NCBI GenBank assembly: GCA_963706565.1
Contig: CAVPMQ010000003.1
Span: 259,119 to 323,118, forward strand
DNA: 64,000 bases
Direction of reading: 5' to 3'
Source: an uncultured Solirubrobacterales bacterium
GTDB lineage: Bacteria > Actinomycetota > Thermoleophilia > Solirubrobacterales > Solirubrobacteraceae
Part shown: positions 3,219 through 35,734 of the stretch, piece by piece
Layout of the letters: every line of letters begins with the position of its first letter
How positions within the stretch are numbered: the stretch's first letter is position 1
The notes under the pieces: model-generated
Seen by the model: only the letters and a program-made list of their open reading frames with translations
What the model was told of the DNA's origin: nothing
The model's database searches: none
Position numbers and translations under genes: made by a program

Positions 3219-3225
3219 GGCGAGC

Positions 3226-3660
3226 TCAGCCGGACAGCCCGCACGGACCCTGGGCGGCCTGAGCGGCGAACAGCTCGGCCCGCGACAGCTCGGGGAACTT
3301 CGGGTTGCGCGCGGCGGCGGTGTCGCTGAACGTCAGCGTCCCGTCCTGGAGCTGGACTCGGTAGGTGAACACCTTGGCGGGCGCGGGGAAGCGGCGGTTG
3401 TCCTGGACGTCAGCGTCGAGGTCCTTGGCCAGGTCCCGGGCGTCGAGCAGCAGCGGATCGGCGATCGACTTGGGCTTGGAGCCGTTACAGCGGATCGTGC
3501 CGCTGTCGTTGACGAGCAGCGTGAGCGTCTGGCCCTGTCCGGTGCGGTGCAGGACGAACAGATCGGGCGAGGCGACGTCGAGCCCGCATCCGGCGATCGT
3601 GGCGCACGCCGTGGCGGCCGTGAGCGCGGCGAGCCCGATCCGAAACCAGTACGCGGTCAT
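3226..3660 (-). CDS. Hypothetical lipoprotein
   Basis: Hydrophobic N-terminus with IAGC lipobox-like motif; fills the gap between neighbouring genes. Confidence 0.6.
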   Translation of the reverse strand: MTAYWFRIGLAALTAATACATIAGCGLDVASPDLFVLHRTGQGQTLTLLVNDSGTIRCNGSKPKSIADPLLLDARDLAKDLDADVQDNRRFPAPAKVFTYRVQLQDGTLTFSDTAAARNPKFPELSRAELFAAQAAQGPCGLSG

Positions 3661-3764
3661 CTCCCCATCGTGCCGAATCCCGGTCTCGTGCCGCGCGGCG
3701 CAGCTAACATGCCCCCAAGCTCGGACGCCGAGGACGGATCCTCGGGGGCGCCGGGTGAGACGCC

Positions 3765-4637
3765 ATGCATCCGATTTCCTACTTCCAGGCCATCGTGCTC
3801 GGACTGCTCCAAGGAGCGTCCGAGCTGTTCCCGATCTCGAGCCTCGGGCACGCGGTGATCGCCCCTCGCCTGTTCGGCTGGGACATTCATCAGAACGACA
3901 CGTTCTTCCTAACGTTCCTGGTCGCGGTACACCTGGCCACGGCGCTGGTGCTGCTGGGCTTCTTCTGGCACGACTGGGTCCGGATCGTCAAGGGCTTCTT
4001 CCGCACAGTCCGCGAGCGGGGGATCGATCCCGCCGACGCCGACGCGCGGCTGGCCTGGCTGCTGATCGCGGGGACGATCCCGGCCGGGATCATCGGCCTG
4101 GTGCTCGAGCATCCGCTGCGCAAGCTGTTCGCGTCGCCGGAGTACGCGGCGGTGTTCCTGATCGTCAACGGGCTGCTCCTGTTCGGCGCAGAGCGACTGC
4201 GCCGCCGTGCTCCCGACGCGCCCGAACGCGAGGCCGACGAGGACTTCCGGATCGCGCACCGGATGAGCTTCCGGCAGGCCGTCGGCGTCGGGGCGGCGCA
4301 GGCGCTGGCGCTGATCCCCGGCATCTCCCGTTCCGGGGTGACGATGGGCGGCGGGCTGATGGTCGGCCTGAACAACCGCGACGCCGCGCGCTTTGGATTC
4401 CTGCTGGCCACGCCGATCATCGGCGCCGCCGCGCTGCTGAAGCTGCCCGAGCTGTTCGGCCACGACGGCGATGGCGTGCGTGGCCCGGCACTCGTGGCGG
4501 CGCTGTGCGCGGCGGGCAGCGCGTTCCTGTCGGTGCGGTTCCTGATGCGGTTCTTTGAGACCAACCGGCTGACGCCGTTTGCGATCTACTGCGTGGTCGC
4601 CGGGACCGCCTTGACGATCGGGTTCGCAGTCACCTAG
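3765..4637 (+). CDS. uppP: Undecaprenyl-diphosphate phosphatase (BacA/UppP)
   Basis: QGASELFPISSLGH and ALIPGISRSG motifs; multiple TM helices. Confidence 0.95.
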   Translation: MHPISYFQAIVLGLLQGASELFPISSLGHAVIAPRLFGWDIHQNDTFFLTFLVAVHLATALVLLGFFWHDWVRIVKGFFRTVRERGIDPADADARLAWLLIAGTIPAGIIGLVLEHPLRKLFASPEYAAVFLIVNGLLLFGAERLRRRAPDAPEREADEDFRIAHRMSFRQAVGVGAAQALALIPGISRSGVTMGGGLMVGLNNRDAARFGFLLATPIIGAAALLKLPELFGHDGDGVRGPALVAALCAAGSAFLSVRFLMRFFETNRLTPFAIYCVVAGTALTIGFAVT

Positions 4638-4651
4638 GCCGAGTGCTGGAC

Positions 4652-4680
4652 GTTTAAGCGAAGCCCTGCTTCGTTAAAAC
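4652..4680. terminator. Hairpin between convergent uppP and ggt (possible bidirectional terminator)
   Basis: GTTTAAGCGAAGC-CCT-GCTTCGTTAAAAC imperfect inverted repeat with A/T-rich flanks. Confidence 0.5.
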
Positions 4681-4690
4681 ATCCACCCTC

Positions 4691-6181
4691 CTAGGTCACG
4701 ACGACCGCGGCGCCGCCTCGCCGCGGGTCCCCTCCGCCCCAGAAGCACCCGTCAGCATCGCGCTCGACGGCCTGTGCGCCCCCGAAGAACAGGTTGAGGT
4801 CGCGGAACCGGGCGATCTCGCGGCCGCCCGCCTCCAGAACCCCGGTGTCGATCCCCGGCTCGGCGTAGACCACGCCGTCCTCCCAGTGCAGCCTGGGCGC
4901 GCGGACCGCGTCCCCAGCCCGCAACCCCTCGTCGACCACCCGGATGATCGTCTGCAGGATCGCTGAGCGGATCCGGTTCGATCCCGCGCTCCCCACGGCC
5001 AGCTCGGGCGTCCCGTCGCGCATCAGGATCGTCGGCGCCATCATGCTCGGCAGCCGCCGGCCCGGCGGGTGGCGGTGGAAGCCGAGCGGGTTGAGGTCCT
5101 GCTCGCCGAGCATGTTGTTCAGGTGCACGCCGGTCCCCGGGACGACGATCCCCGAGCCCTCGCCGTTGGAGCAGGTGACCGAGCACGCCCAACCTTCGCG
5201 GTCGAGCACGGCGATATGGGTGGTCGAGCCCAGCCGCCCGGCGCCGGCCAGGAACCGCCGCACGAACTCGGGGTCGTCGAGCCCCTCGAGGAACTCGGTG
5301 GTGCGCTCGCGCTGGGTGCGCTCCATCACGTCGACGATCGCCGCCAGCGCAGGGGGACCCGGCGCCGCATCGAGCATCGCCAGTGCCCGCGCGATCAGGA
5401 TCCCGCCCGCCGACGGCGGCGCGTTGGTCAGCACCTCGCGCCCTCGGTACGGGACGCGGACGGGCTCGCGATCGACGACCTCGTAGGCGGCGAGGTCGGC
5501 CGCGGTCAGCATCGCTCCGCGGGCGCTCACCCAGTCGACGATCGCGGCCGCGATGTCGCCCGTGTAGAACGCCCCCGAGCCCTCGGCCGCAAGCAGCTCG
5601 ATCGCATCGGCGAGCTCCGGCTGGCAGATCCGCTCGCCCGCCCGCAGCACCCGCCCGTCGGGGGCGTACAGCTCGCGGCACTCCGGGGTGGCGGTGACGA
5701 TCCCGGCCAGGATCTCGACCACGTAGGCCTGTGCGGGGTTGAGCTCGACCCCGTCGCGGGCCAGCCGCGCGGCCGGCGCCACCAGCTCGGCCAGCGGCAC
5801 CCGGCCGAACCGCGCCGAGGCCTCGCACAGCCCCGCCGGCACCCCGTAGGCGCCGACCGAGGCGGCGCCGATGTTGAACACCTGCTCGGCGTCGCCGAAG
5901 GAGACGTCGATCGGAACCAGGTCCGAGCGGACGGCGGGGTCGGCGCCCCGGCCCGGCGCCTCCACGAAGAAGTCCAGTAGCGACGGCCGGCCGTCGGGAC
6001 CGACCACGAGCATGTAGCCGCCCGCTCCCAGACCGGTCAGCAGCGGCTCGCACGAGAACGACGCCAGCATCGCGCCGAGCGCCGCGTCCACGGCGTTGCC
6101 GCCTGCGCGCAGCACATCGGCCCCCGTGCGGGCGGTCAGCGGGTGGCCCGCTGCGATGACGCCGAGCTGCGGCCCGGCCAC
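4691..6181 (-). CDS. ggt: Gamma-glutamyltransferase
   Basis: GGNAVDAA, catalytic STTHIAVLD, LNNMLGE, PSMMAPT and GGGDPRRGG motifs; GTG at 6181 follows the ftsZ stop. Confidence 0.9.
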   Translation of the reverse strand: MAGPQLGVIAAGHPLTARTGADVLRAGGNAVDAALGAMLASFSCEPLLTGLGAGGYMLVVGPDGRPSLLDFFVEAPGRGADPAVRSDLVPIDVSFGDAEQVFNIGAASVGAYGVPAGLCEASARFGRVPLAELVAPAARLARDGVELNPAQAYVVEILAGIVTATPECRELYAPDGRVLRAGERICQPELADAIELLAAEGSGAFYTGDIAAAIVDWVSARGAMLTAADLAAYEVVDREPVRVPYRGREVLTNAPPSAGGILIARALAMLDAAPGPPALAAIVDVMERTQRERTTEFLEGLDDPEFVRRFLAGAGRLGSTTHIAVLDREGWACSVTCSNGEGSGIVVPGTGVHLNNMLGEQDLNPLGFHRHPPGRRLPSMMAPTILMRDGTPELAVGSAGSNRIRSAILQTIIRVVDEGLRAGDAVRAPRLHWEDGVVYAEPGIDTGVLEAGGREIARFRDLNLFFGGAQAVERDADGCFWGGGDPRRGGAAVVVT

Positions 6182-6186
6182 CGCTG

Positions 6187-7590
6187 CTATCGCCTGGGGA
6201 TGAACTCTGGGACGTCGAGCTCGCCCGGTGACCTGGCCGGGCGGCGGTCGCGCATCCGGCTCACCCGCGGCTCGCCTCTCGGCTCGCGCAGCCGCTCGTC
6301 GGTCGTGCGCTCGCTGACGTCGAAGCCCGGACGCTCGCCCCCGCGGCGGCGCTGGCCGTCGTAGCCGGTGGCCACGACGGTGACCCACACCTGGTCGTCG
6401 AGCTTCTCGTCGAGCATCGCGCCGAAGATGATGTTGGCGTCGGGGTGCGCGGCCTCGGCCACCGCCTTGGCGGCCTCGTTGACCTCCCACAGCGACAGGT
6501 CACGCCCACCGGTGATCGACAGCAGGATCGAACGTGCCCCCTCCATGCTCGTCTCCAACAGCGGCGAGGACACCGCCTGCTCGGAGGCGTCGATCGCACG
6601 GCGATCGCCGACACCCATCCCGATCCCCAGCAGCGCGTTGCCGGCGCCGGCCATGATCGTGCGCACGTCGGCGAAGTCGAGGTTGATCAGGCCGGGCAGC
6701 GTGACCAGGTCGGAGATCCCCTGCACGCCCTGGCGCAGCACGTCGTCGGCGACGCGGAACGCCTCGACCATCGAGGTGTTGCGCTCGAGCACGGTCAGCA
6801 GCCGGTTGTTGGGGACGACGATCAACGTGTCGACCTCATCGGCCAGCGCCTCGATCCCGGCCTCGGCCTGGGCGCGGCGCCGCGAGCCCTCAAACTGGAA
6901 CGGCCGGGTGACGATCCCCACCGTCAGCGCGCCGATCTCGCGGGCGATCTGGGCTACGACCGGAGCGGCGCCCGTACCGGTTCCCCCGCCCGCGCCGGCG
7001 GCGATGAAGATCATGTCCGAACCGCGCAGCATCGCCTTGATCCGGTCGTATTCCTCGCGCGCGGCCTGGCGGCCGAGATCGGGGTTGGAGCCGGAGCCAA
7101 GACCGCGGGTGATCGAGTCGCCGATGTGCAGCGTCTCGTGAGCGGCGGACTGCTGCAGCGACTGCAAGTCGGTGTTGATCGCCAGGAACTCGACGCCCGC
7201 GATCTCGGCCTCGACCATCCGGTTGACCGCGTTGACGCCGGCGCCACCGACGCCAACGACGCGCAGCACCGGGCCGCCGAGCTGCGGCGCGGGCGGCTGG
7301 ATCGCGTCCGGCCGCGCGTACACATCGGGCTCCGGCCCCGGCTCGGATTCGGGCCCGGGCTCGGGCTCGGGCTTGCGGGGCTCCAACACGTTTTCGGGGA
7401 TGTCCGCCGAGAACGCGTTGCGCAGACGCTCCTGCGGCGAAGGCACGGGACGCTCGTCGGCCGGCGTCGAACCCTGCGCCTGCGGTTCGGCGGCGGGCTG
7501 CTGCTCGGGAGCGCCGGTGTCCTCGGCCGTCTTGCGAAACAGGGCGGTCAGTGGTCCCTCGCGCATGCTGGCGCGCTTAGCGTTTGGCAT
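6187..7590 (-). CDS. ftsZ: Cell division GTPase FtsZ with ~105-aa N-terminal extension
   Basis: VVGVGGAGVNAVNRM, tubulin signature GGGTGTG, INLDFADV and C-terminal peptide ELDVPEFIPRR; GGAGG RBS upstream of 7590. Confidence 0.95.
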   Translation of the reverse strand: MPNAKRASMREGPLTALFRKTAEDTGAPEQQPAAEPQAQGSTPADERPVPSPQERLRNAFSADIPENVLEPRKPEPEPGPESEPGPEPDVYARPDAIQPPAPQLGGPVLRVVGVGGAGVNAVNRMVEAEIAGVEFLAINTDLQSLQQSAAHETLHIGDSITRGLGSGSNPDLGRQAAREEYDRIKAMLRGSDMIFIAAGAGGGTGTGAAPVVAQIAREIGALTVGIVTRPFQFEGSRRRAQAEAGIEALADEVDTLIVVPNNRLLTVLERNTSMVEAFRVADDVLRQGVQGISDLVTLPGLINLDFADVRTIMAGAGNALLGIGMGVGDRRAIDASEQAVSSPLLETSMEGARSILLSITGGRDLSLWEVNEAAKAVAEAAHPDANIIFGAMLDEKLDDQVWVTVVATGYDGQRRRGGERPGFDVSERTTDERLREPRGEPRVSRMRDRRPARSPGELDVPEFIPRR

Positions 7591-8344
7591 TTGAGAGGAC
7601 CTCCTTAGCGAGCTGCCGGTAGGCGTGTGCTGCCAGACCGTCGGGATCGTACTTCAGCACGGACATTCCTTTCACAGGAGCCTCGGCGAATCGCACGGTC
7701 TTGCGGATCCTTGACGCGAACACCCGGTCTCCGAAGTTCTCCTCCAGCAGTTCGATTGCCTCCTTGGCGTGCAGCGTCCGAGTGTCGACGAGCGTCGGCA
7801 GGATCCCCTCGATGTCGACGTCCGGGTTCAGGTTCTCGCGGACCATCGCCAAGGTGTTCTGGAGCTGGATCAGGCCGCGCATCGACAGATATTCGCACTG
7901 CACGGGGACGATTACCTTGTCCGACGCGGTCAGCGCGTTGATCGTCAGCAGCCCCAGGCTAGGCGGCGTGTCGATGAACACGAAGTCGTAGTCCTCGTCG
8001 ACTTCCTTGAGCGCCTTCTCGAGCACGCGCTCGCGGCCGATCATCGTCGACATCGCGATCTCGGCCCCAGCAAGATCGATCGACGCGCAGGCCACGTCGA
8101 CCTCGCGCTTGCGGATCACCTCGCGGATCGAGATCTTGTGCACCAGAACGTCGTACATCGACTTCTCGAGCGTGTCGGGGTCGATCCCCTGCGACATCGT
8201 CAGGTTTCCTTGCGGGTCCATGTCGGCGCAGAGCACCCGGTGGCCCTCCTCGGCGAACGCGACAGCGAGGTTCAGCGTGGTCGTCGTCTTGGCGACGCCG
8301 CCCTTCTGGTTGGCGAACGTGATCACCTTCGGGCTCGAACTCAT
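7577..8344 (-). CDS. ParA/Soj family ATPase
   Basis: Deviant Walker A NQKGGVAKTT, DMDPQGN, IDTPPSLG and FAEAP; ATG at 8344; stop overlaps the ftsZ start. Confidence 0.93.
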   Translation of the reverse strand: MSSSPKVITFANQKGGVAKTTTTLNLAVAFAEEGHRVLCADMDPQGNLTMSQGIDPDTLEKSMYDVLVHKISIREVIRKREVDVACASIDLAGAEIAMSTMIGRERVLEKALKEVDEDYDFVFIDTPPSLGLLTINALTASDKVIVPVQCEYLSMRGLIQLQNTLAMVRENLNPDVDIEGILPTLVDTRTLHAKEAIELLEENFGDRVFASRIRKTVRFAEAPVKGMSVLKYDPDGLAAHAYRQLAKEVLSNAKR

Positions 8345-25262: not shown

Positions 25263-26606
25263 CTAGACACTCCCGGCCCCGCGTACGGGACCGAGTAGGG
25301 AGCGGTCTTCCCGAAAGGCTAGCGCCACCGTCTCTTCCGTGTCCTGCTGCGATCCGGGCACCGAGCCACGCTGGGCCGCCTCGACCAGGATCGAGTCAGC
25401 GACCGCGCGCAAGTCCGGATCCAGATGGCCGCAGAGGACGTCGCGCAGCAGCGCCCGCAGGTGCTCAGACAGCTCGTCGACCAGGGTGTCGATCCCGGAT
25501 TCGGTGACCGCCGTCCCGGCGATCGCGGCGCGCTCCAGCGAGCTCGCGCGGTTCGTCCGGTCGGCCAGCGTGTCCTGGTACTCGGGCGTCGCGCAGATCG
25601 CAGCCAGCCGCTTGGCGAGTAACCCGCTCTCTGGCCCCTCGGGCTCGAGCAACGCCCGCAGGGCCAGCAGGTAGTCGGTCAGCGCCTCGAACGGCGCCAG
25701 CCGCTCACAGCCCATCTCGAACCGGGCCAGTGCCCACGCGACCTCGCCGCTGCCCGGCGTGCGCCGCGCGATCAGGTTGCAGAACGCCCGCAGCTCATCC
25801 TCATGCTCGGCCGAGATGAACGTCACAAACCGTGGCCGGCCGCTGGCGCCGAGTGGGATCGGCCGCCAGGGTCCGGCGTCGGTCCGAGCCCAGGCGATCG
25901 GCCCCAGCGCATATCCGCCGCGTTCGAACAGCCGCAGCGCGGTCAGCGTCCGACGAAAGCGGATGCGAGCGCTGGACACCGGCGATCTCGCGCCGCGCTC
26001 CTGCGCGACGGTCAGCACCGCGAGCACGTGCGGCTCCTCCCCGTCGCCCCAGACCGCCTCCGCGGGCGCGTCGGGCAGCGCGTCTCCGCGGACCAGCGAC
26101 AGGCCCTCGCCGATCGGCAGCTCGTTCGTCGAATGCTCGAGCGCCAGCCCCAGCAGCGGCGCGATCACGGTCGCCACGCACCGGCCCTCGTACAGCGACC
26201 GCTCCAGCTCGGCGTACGCCAGCTCGAATCGCTCCCGGTCGAATTCGAACTCGCTGCGATCCGCGAACACCTGGGACAGCAACGAGCGCAAGGTCGCGTC
26301 CGCGCGCTCGCGGGGCTCGCCCGGGATCCGCGGCTCGCCCCGATGCGAGAGGTACGCCTCGACCCCGTCGAGGCTCGCCAGGGCCCGGGCTGCCGGCGCG
26401 TACGTCGGTAGGCGCGAGAGCAGCCCGACACGCTCGCGTATGAAAGCCCCGGTCAGCGGGCGGTAGCAGTACAGCGAGGCGTTGGCGCCGGGCTCCTCGA
26501 CAACCTCAAATGGGACCTCGGCCCCACGGGAAGTCTCCATCGCCAGCTGGCCGGCGGCGTCTGCGGCGAACGCCTCGATCGCCGCCTTGAGCGTTGGGTT
26601 GTGCAC
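25263..26606 (-). CDS. Hypothetical protein with HEPN/ApeA-like helical C-terminal region
   Basis: ALARF.MGCER...EALTDYLLALRALL...LAKRLAAI resembles ApeA-HEPN helices (from memory). Confidence 0.55.
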   Translation of the reverse strand: MHNPTLKAAIEAFAADAAGQLAMETSRGAEVPFEVVEEPGANASLYCYRPLTGAFIRERVGLLSRLPTYAPAARALASLDGVEAYLSHRGEPRIPGEPRERADATLRSLLSQVFADRSEFEFDRERFELAYAELERSLYEGRCVATVIAPLLGLALEHSTNELPIGEGLSLVRGDALPDAPAEAVWGDGEEPHVLAVLTVAQERGARSPVSSARIRFRRTLTALRLFERGGYALGPIAWARTDAGPWRPIPLGASGRPRFVTFISAEHEDELRAFCNLIARRTPGSGEVAWALARFEMGCERLAPFEALTDYLLALRALLEPEGPESGLLAKRLAAICATPEYQDTLADRTNRASSLERAAIAGTAVTESGIDTLVDELSEHLRALLRDVLCGHLDPDLRAVADSILVEAAQRGSVPGSQQDTEETVALAFREDRSLLGPVRGAGSV

Positions 26607-26700: not shown

Positions 26701-27897
26701 CTAGATGCCGCGCTGGAGCGCCAGCACCAACAGCACGACGGCGACCACGCCGGCCAGCACGACCACGGCCAGGTTGGTCGCCAGTGCGACCCTCAGCGCG
26801 CCGGGCGAGGGAGCCTGCTTGGGCTCGTCGGCGGGCGGCTCGGAGACGACGCTCTGCGCGGGGTCATCGGGTGTCAGCGTATCGACCGGTTCGTTAGCCG
26901 CAGGCGTCAACGACGTGGCGAGCGCATCTGTCACGTAGCGGTTGAGGCTTACTTCTTGGCGCTCGGCGGCGCGGGCCAGCTGCTCGTGGAGGTCGCTGGG
27001 CATCCGCACCAGGAATCGCCCGCTGTAGTTGGAGCCGTCCTTGTGCTTGCCCGGTCGAGTCGCCTGACTCTGCTGGTCTGCGCCCACGGCGGCGATTCTA
27101 GAGTTCGCCTGCCCGCTCGCGCGAGCTTTCGGACCCGGGCCCTTGGCGTTTGCCGGTTTGACGGGCGATCGAGGAGGAATAACGGGCGATATCACCGCTT
27201 CAGGGGTGATATCAGCGGGGTGGCCGTCGAGCTGCTCGCGGAGCTTGACAAGCGCCCCCTCGAGCAGCCGGGAGACGTGCGCCTGGGAGATCCCGACCGC
27301 ACGACCGATCTCGCGTTCGGTCATGTCCGCGTGAAAGCGCAGGAACACGATCCGGCGCTCGCGGTCGTCGAGCGCCCGCAGGCTGCCCGCCAGCAGCATC
27401 CGATCGTCGCTGGTGACCAGCGGTTGCGCGGTGTCGCTGCCCTCGAGCGGCTCATCGCTCGCCGGTGGCGTCACCGAATCAGCAGCCCGCTGGGCGGCCA
27501 GCGCTCGCTCTACCGCCGGCAGGTCGGCGTCGAGCGCCGTCGCGACCTCCTGGGTCGTCGGGAACCGACCGAGCTTGGTGGCGAGCTCTCCCTGGCGACG
27601 GCGGACCCGGCGGCTCATCCGAGCCACGTCGCGGGGGATCCGCACCGCGGAGACCCGATCGAGCAGGTGGCGGCGGATCTCGCCTTCGATCGCCGGCGTG
27701 ACGAACGTCGCGAACGCGACGCCGCGATCGGGGTCGAATCGGTCGGAGGCCCGTACGAGACCGATCGCGCCGACCTGGACGAGGTCGTCGAGCTCCTCTC
27801 CACGGCCCGCATACCGGCGTGCCACCGATCGGACAAGCGGCATGTGCCGGTCGATCAGAACCTGACGGGATTGCTTCTTTGCCCCTTTCACTGCCAC
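26701..27897 (-). CDS. SigB/SigF-family sigma factor fused to HicB/Arc-type RHH domain and C-terminal TM helix
   Basis: Region 2 LDDLVQVGAIGL..A.DRFDPDRG..FATF..P.IEGEIRRH; region 4 EREIGRAVGISQAHVSRL; RHH YSGRFLVRMPSDLHEQLARAAERQEVSLNRYV; hydrophobic tail LAVVVLAGVVAVVLLVLAL. Start uncertain (27891-27927). Confidence 0.85.
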   Translation of the reverse strand: MAVKGAKKQSRQVLIDRHMPLVRSVARRYAGRGEELDDLVQVGAIGLVRASDRFDPDRGVAFATFVTPAIEGEIRRHLLDRVSAVRIPRDVARMSRRVRRRQGELATKLGRFPTTQEVATALDADLPAVERALAAQRAADSVTPPASDEPLEGSDTAQPLVTSDDRMLLAGSLRALDDRERRIVFLRFHADMTEREIGRAVGISQAHVSRLLEGALVKLREQLDGHPADITPEAVISPVIPPRSPVKPANAKGPGPKARASGQANSRIAAVGADQQSQATRPGKHKDGSNYSGRFLVRMPSDLHEQLARAAERQEVSLNRYVTDALATSLTPAANEPVDTLTPDDPAQSVVSEPPADEPKQAPSPGALRVALATNLAVVVLAGVVAVVLLVLALQRGI

Positions 27898-28014
27898 ACC
27901 CCCATGTGGACCAGTATCACCCCTCAAACTAACAGGGATAGCACGACAAATGTCACTTTTGGTGGGGATCGGCGGGCTGGATCCTGGCGATAAAGAAGGG
28001 CAGGACGCAGGTTT

Positions 28015-29142
28015 ATGGCTTGTCGTAGAACGCGAAAGCTATGGGGGCATTGGGGTGTTCTGGCGTCGACCGCGACGCTGACGCTCCTATCGCTCGCCAT
28101 CCCCGGGATCGCCCAGGCCGCAAGCGCGGATGTCGCCGGCGCGGCCAGAGTCGCCATCCCCTCCGCGCCGGCCGTGCCGGCGGCCGCAGTCACGGCCGCC
28201 ACCTCCGCGCGCTCGATCGCGTCGACGGCGACCGCACATGCCTCCGCCGCGATGCCCGCCGCGCAGCCTGCCGCCGCTGCCGTCGCCGCCGCCGAGGCCG
28301 TCGCTCAGAAGGTCACTTCGAGTCCGTCCGCCGCCTCCGCAGTGAGCTCCCAGCCCTCGAGTCCGCAGGCTGTCGCCGGCGGCTCGAGCTCTTCGCCCCC
28401 ACCACCGCCCCCGGCCGTCCACTCCGGGTCCGCGTCTCAGCCGGACCCCAGTCCCGGATCGCTCGCCGACACGATCGTTCGCCACGTCGAGACCGAGGTC
28501 TCGGCCGCGATCCCGCACAACGTGCGGCCCGACTCGCCGGTCCCGTCCCAGATCAAGGCGATCGTGGCCGATCCCGTTTCGGTCGCGCATCAGGGCGCGC
28601 CCGTCACCGTGGTCGGCCCGAGCAGCGGCCGACGACACCGCGGGCCCAGCAGCTCGTGGCGCCCCGATCCGCGCTCGAGCTCGGGTCATGCGTCGGCGTC
28701 AAGGACACGGGCCGGCACGTTGCTCGCCGGCGCAGCCGCGCCCAGCGCGTGGCTCGCCGCGGCACCTGCGCCGCCCCAGTCAGCTTCGCTGTCAGCCACC
28801 GGAGACCGGCCGGGGGCGGTGGCGCCCCCCACCTCGGACGCGACCGGACCTCCGGGCTCCGGCGGCCACGCCCGCGACCACCTCCGCACCGGCTCTCGGG
28901 CTGGACGCGTTGACATCGCCACGCCGGTCGGCTCGTCGGCTCCGGCCACGGCGGCCGTGGCGCCGGCTGGATCTGAGGGCACGAGCTCGGGCGTCGGCGC
29001 AGGCGGCTCAGCGGCCGCGGCGGCGATCGTGGGGCTGGCTGGCCTCGGGCTGCTGCGGGCGTTGCTGCCGGGGCTGCTCACGCTCGACATCTTTCCCTGG
29101 CAGTCCACGCTCCGGGCCATGCGGCTCGAGCGCCCTGGCTAG
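28015..29142 (+). CDS. Exported Ala/Pro/Ser-rich protein with C-terminal hydrophobic segment ending LERPG
   Basis: N-terminal signal peptide (..LLSLAIPGIAQA), low-complexity body, AAAIVGLAGLGLLRALL segment. Confidence 0.65.
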   Translation: MACRRTRKLWGHWGVLASTATLTLLSLAIPGIAQAASADVAGAARVAIPSAPAVPAAAVTAATSARSIASTATAHASAAMPAAQPAAAAVAAAEAVAQKVTSSPSAASAVSSQPSSPQAVAGGSSSSPPPPPPAVHSGSASQPDPSPGSLADTIVRHVETEVSAAIPHNVRPDSPVPSQIKAIVADPVSVAHQGAPVTVVGPSSGRRHRGPSSSWRPDPRSSSGHASASRTRAGTLLAGAAAPSAWLAAAPAPPQSASLSATGDRPGAVAPPTSDATGPPGSGGHARDHLRTGSRAGRVDIATPVGSSAPATAAVAPAGSEGTSSGVGAGGSAAAAAIVGLAGLGLLRALLPGLLTLDIFPWQSTLRAMRLERPG

Positions 29143-29143
29143 C

Positions 29144-29202
29144 TGAGCTGTCGGTTTCGACAGTCCCATCGCCCTGCTCGACCTGAGCGGGCGAACAGCT
29201 CA
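29144..29202 (+). promoter_or_regulatory. Structured intergenic leader with mutually exclusive pairings upstream of the RBS
   Basis: CTGTCG/CGACAG hairpin competes with TGAGCTGT/ACAGCTCA; inner TCGCCC.GCTC/GAGC.GGGCGA stem; AAGGAG RBS just downstream. Confidence 0.45.
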
Positions 29203-29222
29203 AGTCAAGGAGAAACACAGCA

Positions 29223-31163
29223 ATGAGATCGAAAATGCTCACTGCTGCGGTGACGATCGCTGCGCTGGCACTGCCGGCGTCGGCGATGGCCAGTCCCGGG
29301 TCTGGAGGCTCAGGACAGGCGCAGCAGTCAAAGCAGGCCGCAGCCACGCTGCAGGCAGCCCTGTCAGCGGCACACGCCAAGCAGAACGCAACCAACGCGA
29401 ACGCTCCGGTCAACGTCGCCGGCGGCGACATCTCGGGCGGCGACAACAGCGCCAACCAGACCGCCACCAACGGCGCCCTGAGCGCAGCCGGCAACGCGGC
29501 CGGTACGCACCAGAGCAACAACCAGACCCAGTCGACTTCGGGCTCCGGCTCGGGGTATGGGTCGGGCTCCGCTCCGGGGTACAAGTCCGCTCCGGAGTAC
29601 AAGTCCGAGTCGGCTCCGTCCGCGGGGTCGGGCGGCGCTGGCCAGGCTCAGGCATCTGAGCAGGCGGCGGCTACCGCCCAGCTCGCGGCCTCCAAGGCCA
29701 AGGCCGAGCAGAACGCGACGAACGCCAACGCTCCGGTCAACGTCGCCGGCGGCGACATCTCGGGCGGCGACAACAGCGCCAACCAGACCGCCACCAACGG
29801 CGCCCTGAGCGCAGCCGGCAACGCGGCCGGTACGCACCAGAGCAACAACCAGACCCAGTCGGACCCGCCCTCGGGCCCGTCGATCGGGTCGGGTGGCTCC
29901 GGCCAGGCACAGCTGTCCGCGCAGAAGTCGCTGACCGCTCAGCTGGCGGCCTCCAAGGCCAAGGCCGAGCAGAACGCGACCAACGCGAACACGCCCGTGA
30001 ACGTCGCCGGTGGCGACGTCAACGGCGGTGACAACAGCGCCGACCAGACGGCCACCAACGGCGCCGCGAGCCTGGCCGGCAACGCGTCGGGAACGCACCA
30101 GAGCAACGACCAGAGCCAGTCCGCCGACTCCAGCTGCTACATCGGATGCGGCGGCGCGGGCCAGGCCCAGCTCTCCGAGCAGAAGTCGCTGACCGCCCAG
30201 CTGGCGGCATCGAAGGCCAAGGCCGACCAGAACGCGGTCAACGCGAATGCCCCCGTGAACGTCGCCGGTGGCGACATCTCGGGCGGCGACAACAGCGCCA
30301 ACCAGACGGCCACCAACGGCGCCCTGAGCGCCGCCGGCAATCTGGCCAACACCGACCAGAGCAACAACCAGACCCAGTCCGCCGACTCCAGCTGCTACAT
30401 CGGATGCGGCGGCGCGGGCCAGGCCCAGCTCTCCGAGCAGAAGTCGCTGACCGCCCAGCTGGCGGCGTCGAAGGCCGACGCAAACCAGAACGCGGTCAAC
30501 GCCAATGTTCCGGTGAACATCGCGGGCGGTGACGTCTACGGAGGCGACAACAGCGCCAACCAGACGGCCACCAACGGCGCCTTCAGCGCCGCCGGCAATC
30601 TGGCCAACACCGACCAGAGCAACAACCAGACCCAGTCCGCCGACTCCAGCTGCTTCATCGGATGCGGCGGCGCGGGCCAGGCTCAGCTCTCGAGCCAGGA
30701 GTCGGCCACCCTGCAGGCGGCCCTCTCCAAGGCGGACGCTCACCAGAACGCGGTCAACGCCAACGTTCCGGTGAACATCGCCGGCGGTGACATCTACGGA
30801 GGCGACAACAGCGCCAACCAGACGGCCACCAACGGCGCCTTCAGCGCCGCCGGCAATCTGGCCAACACCGACCAGAGCAACAACCAGACCCAGTCCGCCG
30901 ACTCCAGCTGCTTCATCGGATGCGGCGGCGCGGGTCAGGCCCAACTATCGGGCCAGGCCGCGCTCACGTTGCAGGGAGCGTTGTCCAGCGCGAATGCGAA
31001 CCAGAACGCGGTGAACGCCAACGTTCCGGTGAACATCGCGGGCGGTGACATCTACGGAGGCGACAACAGCGCCAACCAGACCGCCACCAACCTCGCCGGC
31101 AGCCTAGCCGGCAACTTCGCCAACACAGGCCAGACAGGAGGGCAGGACCAGTCATCGAGCTGA
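29223..31163 (+). CDS. Secreted Gln/Asn/Ala/Ser/Gly repeat protein, 7 repeats (putative fibre or amyloid-like major subunit)
   Basis: AAGGAG RBS; Sec signal ending ASAMA; seven copies of QNAxNANxPVNxAGGDxxGGDNSAxQTATN; CYIGC/CFIGC loops. Confidence 0.85.
   Translation: MRSKMLTAAVTIAALALPASAMASPGSGGSGQAQQSKQAAATLQAALSAAHAKQNATNANAPVNVAGGDISGGDNSANQTATNGALSAAGNAAGTHQSNNQTQSTSGSGSGYGSGSAPGYKSAPEYKSESAPSAGSGGAGQAQASEQAAATAQLAASKAKAEQNATNANAPVNVAGGDISGGDNSANQTATNGALSAAGNAAGTHQSNNQTQSDPPSGPSIGSGGSGQAQLSAQKSLTAQLAASKAKAEQNATNANTPVNVAGGDVNGGDNSADQTATNGAASLAGNASGTHQSNDQSQSADSSCYIGCGGAGQAQLSEQKSLTAQLAASKAKADQNAVNANAPVNVAGGDISGGDNSANQTATNGALSAAGNLANTDQSNNQTQSADSSCYIGCGGAGQAQLSEQKSLTAQLAASKADANQNAVNANVPVNIAGGDVYGGDNSANQTATNGAFSAAGNLANTDQSNNQTQSADSSCFIGCGGAGQAQLSSQESATLQAALSKADAHQNAVNANVPVNIAGGDIYGGDNSANQTATNGAFSAAGNLANTDQSNNQTQSADSSCFIGCGGAGQAQLSGQAALTLQGALSSANANQNAVNANVPVNIAGGDIYGGDNSANQTATNLAGSLAGNFANTGQTGGQDQSSS
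29310..31140 (+). repeat. Intragenic tandem repeat, 258-bp period in the distal repeats
   Basis: GCCGACTCCAGCTGC recurs at 30123, 30381, 30639 and 30897, exactly 258 bp apart. Confidence 0.9.
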
Positions 31164-31175
31164 CCTGACCCGGAC

Positions 31176-31226
31176 CGGGCGCCCCGGCGGCCCCCTCGTG
31201 GGGCCCGCCGGGGCCCGCCGGCCTTT
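31176..31226 (+). terminator. Strong GC hairpin after the repeat gene (terminator or mRNA stabiliser)
   Basis: CCCGGCGGCCCC-CTCGT-GGGGCCCGCCGGG stem followed by a short T tract. Confidence 0.5.
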
Positions 31227-31239
31227 CGTGATCCACGCG

Positions 31240-33000
31240 ATGCGAGCTCTCGGACATCCCCTGCTGCTCCCGGCGGTCGCCACGGCCGCCCTGCTGCTGT
31301 TCGTGGCGCCGCAAGCCCGGGCGGCGGACTCGGCGAGCGTGGTATCGCAGGTTCAGGCGGCGGATCTTCCCGCTACCACTGCGGATCCGGCCGCCGCGGC
31401 GGCGCCGACGAACGCTGATATCAGCGCCCCGGCGAGTCCAGATACCACCGATACAAGCTCCGTCGACAACGTTCAGAACACGGTCCAGAGCACCGATCAG
31501 ACGGATGCTCCAGCGGAGCCGGTGACACCTCCTCCCGCGCCGCCGACGCCCCCTCCCCCGCCGCCGACGTCTCCTCCCACGGCACCGGCGCCTTCGGTCG
31601 CGTCGGCGGCTCCCGCTCCGGCCGCAGCGACGAACGCGACCACCCAGGTTGTCTCGCAGGTGCAGGTCGCGGGATGTCTGTCGCACTGTCAGGGCGGGAG
31701 TCAGACCCAAGTGGCGGCGCAGCAGAACCAGACCGTCCACACGCCGGCCTCGACGTCGACTCCGACCTCGACCCCAGCGCCGTCCACCAGCCACATCAAG
31801 CAGGTCCAGGTCGGGTGCGCCAGCGCGTGTTTCGGAACCACGTCCAAGGGCTCGAGCCCCGGGCTGGGGCCGCACGAGCTGTCGGAGCTTGTGCTCGCGC
31901 TCGGCGTCGCCGACTCGCTGCCGACGACGGCGCCCATCAGCGGAGCCGTCCACAACACGGTCTCGCAGACCTCCTCGCAGCTTCAGGTTGGGACCGGCGA
32001 CGCGCAATCCCAGACACAGAGCGCCGCCCAGGCGAACCTCACGATCCAGGCACTCGGCGCCGACCTCGTCGCAAACAGCACCACGCAGGCGATCGCCCAG
32101 ATCCAGATCGGCTGTCTGTTCTATTGCCACGGCACCTCCCAGCAGCAGATCGCGACCCAGTCGAACACGACCGTCGACGTCGCTCCTTCGGCCGCAAGCG
32201 TGTCGACCGTCACAGCTTCGGCCGTGTCCAACGTCACCGACCAGCTGATCTGGCAGTTGCAGGTCGGCTGCCTGATGTGGTGCTGGGACGCGACCCAGGA
32301 TCAGTCGGCATCCAGCGACGACGCGCTGATCGAACTTCCCTCTCAGTGGCCCCCACCCCCGGCGCAGCCGTCGGACCCACAGCAGCCTCCGGACCCCGGG
32401 CCGACGGCCCCCTCGGGCCCGCCGTCGCCGTCCGTGCCGGCGCCGTCCGCTCCGGCTGCGCCGCCGGGTGTCACCGCCCCGCCGCCGTCGTTGGCCCCAT
32501 CGCCGGCGTTCGCGGCCACGCAGTCAACTTCCCCGCCGGCGGCCGGCGCCAACACCCCGACACCGGCCGGCTCGGCGATCGATGTCGGCGGCGTCGTCTC
32601 GGGATCGGTTTGGTCGGGAGCGTGGTCGGAGTCGCTCTCGGCCGCCGGTTGGAGCGTCACCGAGGCGGCGTCGCCGGCGCGCCCGGCCGAGCCTTCCGGG
32701 TCGCGGTCGCGGTCGCGGTCGCCGTTGCCGCCGTCGGCCGGCACGGTATCGGTCGTCCGCCAGGTCGCGACGTCGTCGACCTCGTTCGCCTTGGGCTCTG
32801 CGGTCCACGCCCGCCGAGCGGCCCGGAACGAGCACCGGCACGGATCGGACCCCGCTGGCGCGAAGCCGGCCGGGACGGCGGCGATCGGCGACAGCTCGGT
32901 CGACGGCAGCGCGGACCGAGCGCTCGAGCTGGGGCTGGCAGCGTTCGCGCTCGTCGGTCTGCTGGCCGGGGCTGTGGCATGGCGGCGGCGGATCGGTTGA
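31240..33000 (+). CDS. Secreted, C-terminally membrane-anchored protein with Gln-ladder/CxxxC repeats (putative minor subunit or anchor)
   Basis: Signal peptide ending QARA; repeats QVQVAGCLSHC, QVQVGCASAC, QIQIGCLFYC and QLQVGCLMWC; Pro-rich linkers; LGLAAFALVGLLAGAVA-WRRR tail. Confidence 0.8.
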   Translation: MRALGHPLLLPAVATAALLLFVAPQARAADSASVVSQVQAADLPATTADPAAAAAPTNADISAPASPDTTDTSSVDNVQNTVQSTDQTDAPAEPVTPPPAPPTPPPPPPTSPPTAPAPSVASAAPAPAAATNATTQVVSQVQVAGCLSHCQGGSQTQVAAQQNQTVHTPASTSTPTSTPAPSTSHIKQVQVGCASACFGTTSKGSSPGLGPHELSELVLALGVADSLPTTAPISGAVHNTVSQTSSQLQVGTGDAQSQTQSAAQANLTIQALGADLVANSTTQAIAQIQIGCLFYCHGTSQQQIATQSNTTVDVAPSAASVSTVTASAVSNVTDQLIWQLQVGCLMWCWDATQDQSASSDDALIELPSQWPPPPAQPSDPQQPPDPGPTAPSGPPSPSVPAPSAPAAPPGVTAPPPSLAPSPAFAATQSTSPPAAGANTPTPAGSAIDVGGVVSGSVWSGAWSESLSAAGWSVTEAASPARPAEPSGSRSRSRSPLPPSAGTVSVVRQVATSSTSFALGSAVHARRAARNEHRHGSDPAGAKPAGTAAIGDSSVDGSADRALELGLAAFALVGLLAGAVAWRRRIG

Positions 33001-33109
33001 AGCGCACAAGAAAGAGGCGTATCGTCCGCACCAGGTATCGACACGTAGGTCGCCGCGCGACAGCGGAGTGCTCGGAGCGTGGCGGACCGGGGGTAGTGGA
33101 AGGTTGAGC

Positions 33110-33781
33110 GTGAGCCGCGTGCACGGTCGTAGAGCCATCGTCTCGATGGGCGCATTCGCCCTGATGCTGGGCGCACCCGCGGTCGCGATCGCCGCCTCAC
33201 CCAGCGCCCAGCCCTCGCCCCAGAAGGCCCCGTCGGTGAGCGCCGCCGCGACGCCCGCTCCGGACCCTGCGCCCCAGGCGTCGTCGTTCTCGTCGACGCC
33301 GCACACGACCGTCACCTCGCAGCCGTCCGCCGGCTCGCCGGTATCCGTGTCGCCGACGGTCACTTCGTCGCCGGTCTCGAGCGCGCCGTCTCAGACGGCG
33401 ACGTCCGCTCCGGTCCAAACTCACAATAAGTCCGCGGTGACCGGGCCGACGTCGACCGCCGACTCCACGTCGCCGGCCAAGGCCGTCGCGGCGGCGTCAC
33501 CGACGCGGCCCCGGCCCGCCGCCCATCACGCCGACAGGCCCAAGCCCGCCCCGGTGCATCACCGCAAGCCCGTGGCAAAGCCCTTCGTGCTGTCGCTGAT
33601 GAACCCGCGCGAGCTGCCGCAATTGCCGCTGGAGGCGGTTGCGGCGACTAAGGCGGTGCGGCCGGATGGGATGCTGTTACTGCTCAGCGCGCTCGCGCTC
33701 GGGACGCTCGTGGTCGCCAGCCTGTCGCTGCTGCGTCGGCTGACCCGGCTGCATGACGAGTGGCGGGAGCGGTCGGTTTGA
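33110..33781 (+). CDS. Exported Ser/Pro/Thr-rich protein with C-terminal TM helix
   Basis: Signal-like N-terminus (FALMLGAPAVAIA), low-complexity stalk, MLLLLSALALGTLVVASLSLL-RR. Confidence 0.6.
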   Translation: MSRVHGRRAIVSMGAFALMLGAPAVAIAASPSAQPSPQKAPSVSAAATPAPDPAPQASSFSSTPHTTVTSQPSAGSPVSVSPTVTSSPVSSAPSQTATSAPVQTHNKSAVTGPTSTADSTSPAKAVAAASPTRPRPAAHHADRPKPAPVHHRKPVAKPFVLSLMNPRELPQLPLEAVAATKAVRPDGMLLLLSALALGTLVVASLSLLRRLTRLHDEWRERSV

Positions 33782-35131
33782 TCCGGCGGCGGTACCGGCT
33801 CGCGCTGGTCGGGGCCGTCGTGGTGATTGGGGTGCTACTCGTAAGTGTCGGGATGGCGTTGGCGGACGACATCTCGCGCGACGTGCACAGACAGGTCGGT
33901 CGGCGCCGGCGTGCGACGGCGGCTGGTACGCGAGCCCGGTTTCGGTCGTCTGGCAGGCGAATCCCGCTCCGACGAGCACCGACCGTGCCTGCTTGGCGTC
34001 GTGACCCAGTTCACGACGGACACTGTCACGAAGGTTTCGTGCACTGCGAATTGGCCTTCCGACAGCCAGTCGCGAAGCTACACGCTGCACGTCGAGGCTT
34101 CGAACCCGAGCGCGTCCGCAGTCGCCGTCTCGACCACCGGATGCGAACGGCTGGTACAACCATCCGTTCTCGCGTTTCGTTCCGGGGTAGCGCGTTCTCT
34201 GGGATCGCGTCTTGCAGCGTGCCGGTGACGTACGGCGGTCCCGACACGCTCAACACGAGCGTTGCCGGCATCTGCATCGACCACGCCGGCAAGACCGCGG
34301 GCGCAAGCGTCTCGGTCCACTACGACGCAACCCCCCCGACGATCACCTCGGGCCTCCCCACCCGGGCGCCGGACCACAACGGCTGGTACACGCACCCGGT
34401 CACGTTCGCGTTCAACGGAACCGACGCAACCTCGGGGGTGAGCAGCTGCGCGAACATCACCTACGCGGGCCCGAGCAGCGCCTCGGCCGCGGTGACCGGC
34501 AGTTGCGTAGACCGCGCGGGCAACGTCGCCCGGATGGCGGTGCCGCTGCACTACGACTCGACCGCGCCCTCGCTGGCGGTATCGACCGCTACCGGCGACG
34601 GGTTCGTGGGGCTCGATTGGAAGACAGGTGCCGACGTCGCGCCGCTGACGTACGATCGAGGTGACCCGCAAGCCGGGCCGCCGCGCCGCCGACAGCAGCG
34701 TCGTCTACCGCGGCAAGGCCGGCGACTTCCGCGACCTGCACGTCAGTAACCGAAAGCGCTACCGGTACACGATCACCGCCACCGACCAGGCCGGCAACAG
34801 GTCGGCCCGGGTCGTGTCGATCACCGCCGGCCCGCACCTGATCTCACCCGGCGACGGCGCCCGGGTGGGGGCTCCGCCGCTGCTGACCTGGACCTCGGTT
34901 CGCCGCGCCACCTACTACAACGTCCAGCTGTTCCGCGGCCGGAAGCTGATGAGCATCTGGCCGGACACCACGAGCCTGCAGCTCAAGCGCAGCTGGCGCT
35001 TCGGCCGCCATCACTACAACCTGCGCCCCGGCCGCTACCGGTGGTTCGTGTGGCCGGGCTTCGGCGAGCGCTCAGCCGCCCGCTACGGACACGCGATCGG
35101 CAGCGGGACATTCGTGGTCACCGCACGGTGA
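33778..35131 (+). CDS. Secreted Ig-like/fibronectin-type repeat protein (several frameshifts)
   Basis: Signal peptide; repeated (N/G)GWY..P...C.D.AG(K/N)...V.YD.T.P modules spread over three frames; Fn3-like YRYTITATDQAGN.S. Confidence 0.65.
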
Positions 35132-35157
35132 CCGACCGGCGCGAAACGCCTCCCCGC

Positions 35158-35272
35158 CATGCTTAACATCCCATTCGAGCCGTCCCGCTGTTACCGCGGG
35201 ACGTTCGTCACCTGGGACATGATCAACGTCCCACGGTGCACCGCCAGGCGGTCGAGCGGGACGTTAGTCATG
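35158..35272. repeat. Intergenic palindromic REP/MITE-like element
   Basis: Imperfect 15-bp terminal inverted repeats (CATGCTTAACATCCC / GGGACGTTAGTCATG, 12/15) enclosing two hairpins built from the same RTCCC/GGGAC core. Confidence 0.5.
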
Positions 35273-35280
35273 TCGATCGC

Positions 35281-35734
35281 CTAGCCTAGCCGGCTCCGCT
35301 CGATCTCGCCCACGTGCTCGACGTTGGCCACGTCGTCGCGCTCCTCGCTTGGGCTCCCCGAAAACCAGGCGTCGAGGATCTCCTCGAGCTGCGCCTGCGA
35401 GGTGGCGCGGAGGCTCAGCGCCAGTACGTTGGCGTCGTTCCACCGACGCGCTCCGTCGGCGGTCTGGGCATCGGCGCACAGCGCCGCCCGAACTCCCGCA
35501 ACCTTGTTGGCGGCGATCGAGGCCCCGGTGCCCGTCCAGCAGGCGACGATCGCCTGCTCGGCCAGGCCGTCGACTACCGCGCGCGCGGCCGCCTCGCTCG
35601 CCCACGCCCAGTCGGGGCGTTGCCCGCTCGTCGTAGGCGCCGAGCAGGATCGGCTCGTGGCCCCGGCGACGCAGCTCGGCCGGCAGCGCGTCGGCGATCC
35701 CGGTCAGCTCGTCCGCGGCCAGCGCGATCCGCAC
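35281..35734 (-). CDS. RpiB/LacA/LacB family sugar-phosphate isomerase (frameshift near 35625)
   Basis: VRIALAADE, then in a shifted frame CWTGTGASIAANKV.GVRAALC...AR.WNDANVL. Confidence 0.8.

Follow-up and report, generated by a model that had tools for sequence, protein, structure and literature searches.

A membrane-anchored Gln-ladder/CxxxC protein encoded next to a secreted repeat protein in uncultured Solirubrobacterales: a putative cell-bound base for a surface fibre or sheet

The gene pair and its shared motif

The stretch of DNA considered here (the window: 64,000 nucleotides, ~70% G+C) is part of contig CAVPMQ010000003.1 of an uncultured Solirubrobacterales bacterium, whose genome assembly (GCA_963706565.1) comprises 5.57 Mb in 14 contigs. 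It harbors two neighboring genes, designated A and B, whose products carry the same arrangement of Gln residues around a CxxxC motif. Gene A (29223..31163, + strand), delineated by its open reading frame (ORF), translation, and repeat conservation, encodes a secreted protein of 646 aa built of about seven 86-aa repeats. Gene B (31240..33000, + strand), the main subject of this work, encodes an exported and C-terminally membrane-anchored protein, as judged from its ORF, its translation, the G+C content of its third codon positions (GC3 = 0.84), and its full-length orthologues.

The open frame of gene B begins either with GTG at 31198 or with ATG at 31240 and ends at 33000 (586 aa from the ATG). 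The ATG is preferred, since the protein then opens with a standard signal peptide, MRALGHPLLLPAVATAALLLFVAPQARA, followed by AD, and since the in-frame GTG falls inside the strong stem-loop separating A and B (see below). Full-length orthologues of 585–593 aa start at the same signal peptide. For a near-identical database entry, P0005, an internal start was chosen, giving only 428 aa, but the long form is considered real because these orthologues retain the signal peptide. The latter (31240..31323, +) is likely cleaved after ARA, lacks a lipobox Cys, and is conserved in P0006, P0007, and P0012. Export via the Tat pathway was considered for the longer GTG-start form, which has an RR (ARRPFVI) upstream of the ATG, and rejected, since this RR is conserved in neither P0006 nor P0007; hence, B is presumed to be a Sec substrate.

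The signal peptide is followed by an Ala/Pro/Thr/Asp-rich spacer of 105 aa (31324..31638, +; 26% Ala, 23% Pro), recognized by its composition and not conserved in distant homologues. Next comes the Gln-ladder domain of ~235 aa, harboring five units (U1–U5) and embedded between this spacer and a second low-complexity one, a Pro/Ala/Ser-rich segment of 195 aa (32338..32922, +; 19% Pro, 19% Ala, 17% Ser). Homologues have a similar kind of spacer on the C-terminal side, with variable sequence. The protein ends with the predicted transmembrane (TM) helix LELGLAAFALVGLLAGAVA and the putatively cytoplasmic tail WRRRIG (32923..32997, +), and a hydrophobic 19-mer followed by Lys/Arg closes 37 of 48 orthologue ORFs. 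The residues preceding the TM helix are not conserved among the orthologues; an LPxTG, LAxTG, or PEP-type motif before it was found neither in B nor as a conserved feature of the 48 orthologues, and the sole sortase gene of the genome resides on another contig. The C-terminus probably keeps B in the membrane permanently instead of serving as a sorting signal, and the membrane tether as such (signal peptide, C-terminal TM helix, and basic tail) is well supported. Composition and sequence agree on these points with an earlier note on this DNA, which had described Pro-rich spacers, a C-terminal TM segment with a WRRR tail, and no clear LPxTG; its count of about five degenerate units with Gln spacing and CxxxC likewise stands, as five units, four of them with CxxxC.

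All eight Cys residues of B fall into these four CxxxC pairs, at residues 160, 207, 306, and 358 of P0001, and three of the units (U1, U4, and U5) are complete in the sense of a Gln strand, CxxxC, and another Gln strand. U1 (TTQVVSQVQVAGCLSHCQGGSQTQVAAQ; 31639..31743, +) features a CLSHC turn between two Gln-ladder strands (invariant Q, C, C, Q, A, and Q columns; strands 144–157 and 168–182 of P0001 in the AlphaFold2 (AF2) model). U2 (HIKQVQVGCASACFGTT) comprises the half-unit KQVQVGCASACFGTT (31792..31848, +), i.e., the first Gln strand and CxxxC without the downstream Gln set, followed by a conserved FGTT; Q65, Q67, G69, C70, and C74 of the domain are invariant. Between U2 and U3, a short helix is predicted (31870..31908, +; residues 88–100 of the domain according to DSSP assignment of the AF2 model). 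U3 (SQTSSQLQVGTGDAQSQTQSAAQ; 31948..32052, +) is a hairpin with both Gln strands and no Cys (SQTSSQLQVG..QSQTQSAAQ), recognized by AF2 strands, invariant Q120 and Q124, and nearly invariant Q126, G128, and A139. The best-conserved unit is U4 (TQAIAQIQIGCLFYCHGTSQQQIATQ; 32065..32181, +), with TQAIAQIQIGCLFYCHGTSQQQIATQSNTTV at its core (invariant Q160, Q164, Q166, G168, C169, C173, Q178, Q180, and A182); this unit is also aligned by hhalign with the CxxxC region of the A repeat. U5 (DQLIWQLQVGCLMWCWDATQDQ; 32227..32337, +) has invariant Q216, Q218, G220, C221, C225, and Q232, along with W215 and W224 conserved at ≥90%. The strand face opposite the Gln ladder is strongly hydrophobic beside the turn (W/L/I and residues of CLFYC-type turns) and variable further away from it.

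The same pattern recurs in A, where all eight Cys residues are also distributed among four CxxxC pairs and QSNNQTQSADSSC[YF]IGCGGAGQAQLSxQ is present four times. Before the turn, the ladder reads T-x-Q-x-I-x-Q-x-Q in B (T11, Q13, I15, Q17, and Q19 of the domain) and T-x-Q-x-N-x-Q-x-Q in A (T30, Q32, N34, Q36, and Q38 of the repeat). After the turn, it continues as Q-x-Q-x-A-x-Q in B and Q-x-Q-x-S-x-Q in A, in both cases starting five residues after the second Cys. Judging from the aligned residues, A and B have a common ladder in the same register, which goes beyond a loose motif and deeper than the shared Gln spacing and CxxxC pointed out in the earlier note. At the profile level, hhalign matched 30 columns around CxxxC (E = 0.0038, with a probability of only 8.7%); this weak similarity is compatible either with a distant common origin or with convergence and is no proof of homology.

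Within the genome, the motif is exclusive to the two proteins. The pattern Q.Q.{1,6}C...C.{1,6}Q.Q gave seven matches in 11.1 million six-frame residues, four in A and three in B, and the full mirror form, Q...Q.Q..C...C..Q.Q...Q, gave six, located only in A and B. In 20,000 shuffles of B, a mean of 0.00015 motifs was obtained, and the number of four CxxxC was never reached. The motif of A and B is not a product of chance.

The ends of A display further peculiarities. In all clean orthologues, its C-terminus ends with ...T.Q.GGQ.Q.SS (here ...GGQDQSSS), just where the CxxxC turn would come next; after the signal peptide, the protein opens with GSGGSGQAQ, which is the post-turn strand of its own repeats. 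Thus read, A would possess two open half-units, so that head-to-tail pairing would be conceivable, as would pairing with a complete B unit.

The two genes are separated by a GC-rich stem-loop (31172..31223, +), defined by folding energy and conservation, which starts 8 nt past the stop codon of A and is followed by UUUCGUG. The minimum free energy of the region 31155–31245 is −50.7 kcal/mol; in 31 orthologous loci, the matching 90 nt were compared with shuffled sequences, giving a mean z of −3.55, with 26 of the 31 below −2. The stem is kept in 19 alignable loci, with one compensatory pair. A scan of 27800–35300 revealed no sigma-70-like promoter and no canonical + strand terminator; it also missed the A–B stem-loop, which has only a short U run. 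The stem-loop may act as a partial terminator or as an mRNA-stabilizing 3′ hairpin, making A the major and B the minor product. Some pilus operons are known to have a comparable arrangement for their major and minor subunits.

Traces of gene A were encountered in metatranscriptomes: contigs from four rhizosphere libraries match the region 29066–31159 with 0–3 differences over 150–396 nt. Almost nothing covers 31156–33000, and one contig ends at 31159, although such contigs can neither rank genes nor reveal where transcripts end, and DNA may be present in RNA libraries. Three of the A contigs start at 29103–29106, ~120 nt before the start codon of A and inside the end of the preceding gene, P3; with the same reservation as to transcript ends, these starts may hint at a separate promoter of A.

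Family, co-occurrence with A, and natural fusions

At E ≤ 1, B did not match any entry of Pfam (hmmscan) or NCBIfam, and the Pfam-A search at the same threshold returned zero families for A as well. A profile search of the PDB with B gave no sequence relative; the feature search of the ESM Atlas gave no named one, its best match (0.87) being an unnamed cluster. The literature search revealed no paper joining Solirubrobacterales with amyloid or fibrils and none describing the B family. At the same time, a word-indexed search retrieved 19 relatives of B, the distant ones (~40% identity) having the same architecture, and a profile search of 1.84 billion cluster representatives retrieved 269 proteins at E ≤ 1e-3, 238 of them at E ≤ 1e-10. 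In the 40-sequence alignment of the domain, 29 columns are invariant, nearly all of them Q, C, G, or A. Judging from these sequence searches, the B family is real but small. It is delimited here as a new family by the five-unit Gln-ladder/CxxxC domain with its invariant Q, G, and C columns, with a signal peptide before it, a spacer, TM helix, and basic tail after it, and an A-like repeat gene immediately upstream; B displays all of these features.

Scanning prokaryotes for the pattern, with each species represented by one genome, yielded 48 B loci, all in Solirubrobacterales or Actinomycetota metagenome-assembled genomes (MAGs), save two short contigs binned elsewhere; the closest loci all come from MAGs of uncultured soil Solirubrobacterales. 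According to tblastn with the cluster proteins of the window, the gene directly upstream of B is A-like in each of the 48 loci, and the order of a sigma factor gene (minus strand), P3, A, B, and two downstream ORFs is conserved as well. A divergent branch of B features four units of the type VFQVxWQVQxGCxxxCxGTSQxQ. In all three of its contigs that reach upstream (L050, L058, and L059), the immediately preceding gene is again A-like, while the other neighbors differ. The A–B pair of this branch is followed by a Ser/Thr protein kinase (L050, 6340–7887; L058, 3176–7457, where a PKD-domain protein is inserted between them), and this kinase/PKD context replaces the sigma-factor context of the window.

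Of 201 genomes sampled evenly across the order, two were found to contain B; strong matches to A were found in the same two genomes, adjoining B. In one further genome of this sample, B is missing and the only A-like repeat protein is a weak match without Cys. The earlier note had regarded homologues of B occurring independently of the repeat gene as speaking against its reading; such homologues were sought in the 48 + 3 loci and in the 201-genome sample, and none was found.

The third line of evidence comes from natural fusions, of which at least five were found: P0018 (745 aa), P0045 (834 aa), P0077 (882 aa; the gene at 4951–7599 of locus L030), P0108 (867 aa), and a partial ORF in L033. Each of them starts with a signal peptide and two to four A-like repeats (...SSGCSAGCGGAGQVQVSGQ...), which a short linker joins to an intact B domain; the spacer, TM helix, and basic tail come last. 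Together with the anchor, this order places B proximal and A distal to the cell. As read from their sequences, the fusions would provide just the topology needed for an anchor model, i.e., membrane, spacer, B domain, and A-type repeats directed outward. Taken together, synteny, co-occurrence, and fusions make the functional link of B to A well supported.

In L030, the fusion gene is accompanied by a different Cys-containing repeat protein of 585 aa (3093–4850; ...NSALCNQLAGENTAGIPQCEQTNGSLVLQ...GGNASANGG...), encoded between a P3-like gene and the fusion. This protein may represent an alternative major subunit.

Predicted structure and the proposed role of B

The AF2 model of the B domain, built from the 40-sequence alignment, has a mean predicted local distance difference test score (pLDDT) of 80.2 and a predicted TM-score (pTM) of 0.75. 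It displays five pairs of strands, 13–15 residues each, with each CxxxC at a turn and the one short helix between U2 and U3. The model of the fusion P0018 (residues 25–575) is of lower confidence (pLDDT 65.5, pTM 0.61); its A-like repeats form pairs of 19–22-residue strands with CxxxC in the connecting loop. Since CxxxC is located at the turn in both models, the motif marks the same structural element in the A-like and B modules.

Comparison of the B model with known structures returned little. Foldseek found nothing in the PDB at E ≤ 0.001, and shapes of the ESM Atlas reached a TM-score of at most 0.26; in VIA-align over 48,161 chains, the best Z was 2.6, far under the usual noise of 7–8. Missing matches of this kind do not prove that the fold is new, but the low VIA-align Z suggests that B, as modeled, is an extended, non-globular array. 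Foldseek of the fusion model gave insignificant beta-helix rows only. Prediction of a complex between the C-terminal 213 aa of A and the B domain scored 0.00 in both runs; controls were not run, and the result counts neither way.

The four CxxxC turns of B are probably stapled by i/i+4 disulfides. The genome encodes VKOR adjoining a DsbA-like protein, and this pair makes extracytoplasmic disulfides plausible. Oxidation of exported Cys pairs is an established part of actinobacterial oxidative folding.

The reading favored here is that B is a minor, cell-bound base subunit on which a fibre or sheet of A docks; we would give it a probability of roughly 0.55. Under this scheme, B would be exported by Sec, with its C-terminal helix staying in the membrane and WRRRIG on the cytoplasmic side, the 195-aa spacer would cross the cell wall, and the ~235-aa domain with its five strand-turn-strand units would be displayed outside. 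The conserved face of B, T-Q-I-Q-Q on one strand and Q-Q-A-Q on the other, would repeat the ladder flanking the CxxxC turn of the A repeats, so that A could dock on it in register and extend outward from the cell. The stem-loop after the stop codon of A would keep the level of B below that of A. We infer the docking, the wall spanning, the disulfides, and the A:B stoichiometry. Of the earlier proposal that B "templates and tethers" a fibre, the tether and the link to A were borne out; templating, or nucleation, goes further, and the seeding of A by B is conceivable by analogy to other systems. A bolder version, distinctly less probable, is that the five disulfide-stapled Gln-ladder hairpins of B constitute an undescribed fold acting as a membrane-tethered template, on which a wide, polar fibre of A, built as a beta-solenoid, would be both seeded and retained. 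In that case, a curli-like assembly system dependent on a nucleator would have arisen independently in monoderm Actinomycetota, its nucleator having a TM anchor of its own and its A:B stoichiometry being set via the stem-loop.

Several points weigh against B as the docking base. The proposed contact between A and B is itself hypothetical, and a recognizable C-terminal TM helix is missing in 11 of the 48 orthologue ORFs, several of which are apparently frameshifted. In view of the weak similarity of A and B, their motif could be convergent, or it could be an ancestral remnant outliving any shared assembly. The units of B span ~35–40 aa vs. 86 aa in the repeats of A, and, given this smaller size, B could match only a part of an A rung. 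The modeled strand-turn-strand units could be hairpins of a meander sheet as well as curli-like stacked arcs of a solenoid. Finally, P3 could be the real anchor or nucleator: it is as conserved as B, and its relative in genome G177 carries a copy of the repeat motif of its own cluster (see below).

Three other explanations compete with B as the docking base. The most probable of them, though itself unlikely, is that A and B are co-structural in a two-protein surface layer or sheath, B being an integral, roughly stoichiometric, membrane-held component rather than the base or seed of a fibre. The cluster does encode three exported proteins with a C-terminal hydrophobic anchor and a long low-complexity spacer (P3, B, and the ORF at 33.1–33.8 kb), and the Ig-like (immunoglobulin-like) membrane protein of the cluster would fit an envelope layer; so would the non-globular, long-strand array of the B model with no known fold, and the fusions demonstrate that A-like and B modules can share one anchored polypeptide. 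Yet A has no anchor and consists of seven near-identical repeats, as is typical of a polymerizing major subunit, the conserved stem-loop argues for unequal expression of the two genes, and the B domain is not tandem-repeated beyond its five units.

Less probable still is that B serves as a cell-bound cap, inhibitor, or chaperone binding the ends of A near the membrane and stopping premature or misplaced polymerization. All the evidence linking A and B would apply here equally, cognate hairpins could block an end of A as readily as seed it, and the tether puts B where newly secreted A emerges. The fusions speak against it, since a permanent joining of A-like repeats to the B domain is hard to reconcile with an inhibitor and easy to reconcile with a base; besides, the inhibitors and chaperones of curli (e.g., CsgC and CsgE) are not known to have the repeat motif of the subunit. 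A similarly low probability is assigned to B as an independent surface protein, e.g., an adhesin or a wall- or ligand-binding array with a flat Gln surface, which shares ancestry and regulation with A and does not assemble with it. The ~29 invariant residues, mostly Gln at alternate strand positions, could form a regular polar binding face, and both the hypothetical character of the A–B contact and the weak profile similarity to A would suit such a protein. What speaks against it is the adjacency in 51 of 51 loci across differing neighborhoods together with the repeated A-like fusions, which exceed usual co-regulation.

Regarded as a cell-bound base subunit, B would resemble CsgB, the long chaplins, TapA, and FapB in its role, with no sequence match to any of them, i.e., it would be a new family in a known kind of role. 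CsgB, the minor curli nucleator of Enterobacteria, is proposed to template the polymerization of CsgA (PMC7766987). As is proposed for B, CsgB is a minor, cell-associated protein with Gln/Asn-ladder strand-turn-strand repeats similar to those of the secreted major subunit encoded beside it. In contrast to CsgB, the units of B have CxxxC at the turn, with long linkers between them, and B is encoded downstream of the major subunit. Moreover, B is fixed to its monoderm cell by a TM helix of its own and a presumably wall-spanning spacer, whereas CsgB resides on the outer membrane via CsgF/CsgG. The curlin repeat (Curlin_rpt, PF07012) was not found in B or A by hmmscan against Pfam-A at E ≤ 1; among the Foldseek rows of the fusion model, CsgA (8c50) ranked first without being significant (E = 0.019, TM-score 0.07–0.09).

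The long chaplins ChpA–C of Streptomyces are proposed to be a scaffold attaching short chaplins to the cell (PMC7766987). As with B and A, a secreted subunit (amyloid-forming in chaplins) has a counterpart which is anchored to the cell of an actinobacterium and carries Cys pairs; in chaplins, these pairs form intramolecular disulfides. The chaplin domain (PF03777) is hydrophobic and 40 aa long, whereas B is Gln-rich and polar, with no Pfam match to that domain at E ≤ 1; moreover, long chaplins are covalently anchored via a sortase signal, whereas B ends with a hydrophobic stretch and a basic tail, with no LPxTG/LAxTG. In Bacillus subtilis, TapA is an accessory protein which promotes the polymerization of TasA and anchors the fibres to the cell (PMC7766987). 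Similar to B, it is encoded beside the fibre subunit in a monoderm; searches of Pfam and NCBIfam did not place B in the TasA or TapA families. TapA is not known to have a repeat motif in common with TasA or a C-terminal TM anchor. The Fap system of Pseudomonas comprises a major and a minor subunit (FapC and FapB) with common imperfect Gln/Asn-rich repeats, as in A and B, but depends on an outer-membrane secretion system whose genes are absent here. No Fap family was matched by B in Pfam; the FapC structures 9nqd and 9u4u were the top Foldseek rows for the B model, at insignificant values (E 0.11–0.15, TM-score 0.14–0.20).

Nucleator-dependent functional amyloids have been well worked out in diderms (curli and Fap); their monoderm partners, TapA and the long chaplins, are poorly understood. 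The pair described here is legible in this respect: the same ladder and loop occur in a secreted polymer and its tethered partner, fusions fix their order, and the intergenic region carries a conserved RNA hairpin. If the proposed role is true, the pair would show that the task of confining fibre initiation to the cell surface, and of retaining the fibre there, has been solved independently a third time. It would, moreover, contribute a new fold made of Gln ladders, either buried or displayed, and of i/i+4 disulfide turns. The Solirubrobacterales carrying the pair are abundant in soil but uncultured, and hardly anything is known of their cell surfaces; contigs near-identical to gene A turn up in rhizosphere RNA libraries.

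Neighboring genes and the spread of the module

P3 (28015–29142) encodes a second anchored protein, as conserved in the cluster as B, with a hydrophobic end segment followed by LERPG. The same ending after a hydrophobic segment is found in the P3-like gene of L030 (1968–3083) and in the P3-like protein of G177, and it could represent an unrecognized sorting or processing signal. The G177 locus (L053, G177:C20, 1156–3431, minus strand) is a B-less relative of the cluster, where the P3-like protein (...LRLERPG) is followed by a Cys-less repeat protein with the motif NISVRVLSPGDDGDVSQENNS..NDND.DQ..DQ.Q. The P3-like protein itself has one copy of that motif, VDIRILSPGDDGDVSQ. P3-type proteins may be anchors or nucleators themselves.

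On the other side of P3, a divergent gene on the minus strand (26701–27927) encodes a sigma factor with SigB/F/G-type regions 2–4, a HicB/Arc-like ribbon-helix-helix domain, and a hydrophobic segment at the C-terminus; its synteny extends to most of the 48 loci. B was considered as an anti-sigma partner of this membrane-tethered protein, an idea rejected because only six residues of B are cytoplasmic. Downstream of B, the ORFs 33760..34749 and 34661..35131 share 89 nt, read in different frames, and in relatives, the match to the second lies inside open frames of 286–538 aa. The region 33760–35131 is probably a single gene coding for an N-terminal TM segment and Ig-like repeats, with a frameshift or an assembly error in this genome.

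The gene at 34661–35131 was found in 6 of 31 genomes of the genus to which the window belongs, i.e., the module is patchy. By comparison, the gene at 25263–26606 was detected in 28 of the 31 (a count which includes the unpublished genome G224, on which the conclusion does not depend) and belongs to the core rather than to the module. In G215 and G219, the counterparts of these two genes are ~8 kb apart, as they are in the window. This pattern suggests that the module is an accessory island at a fixed site.

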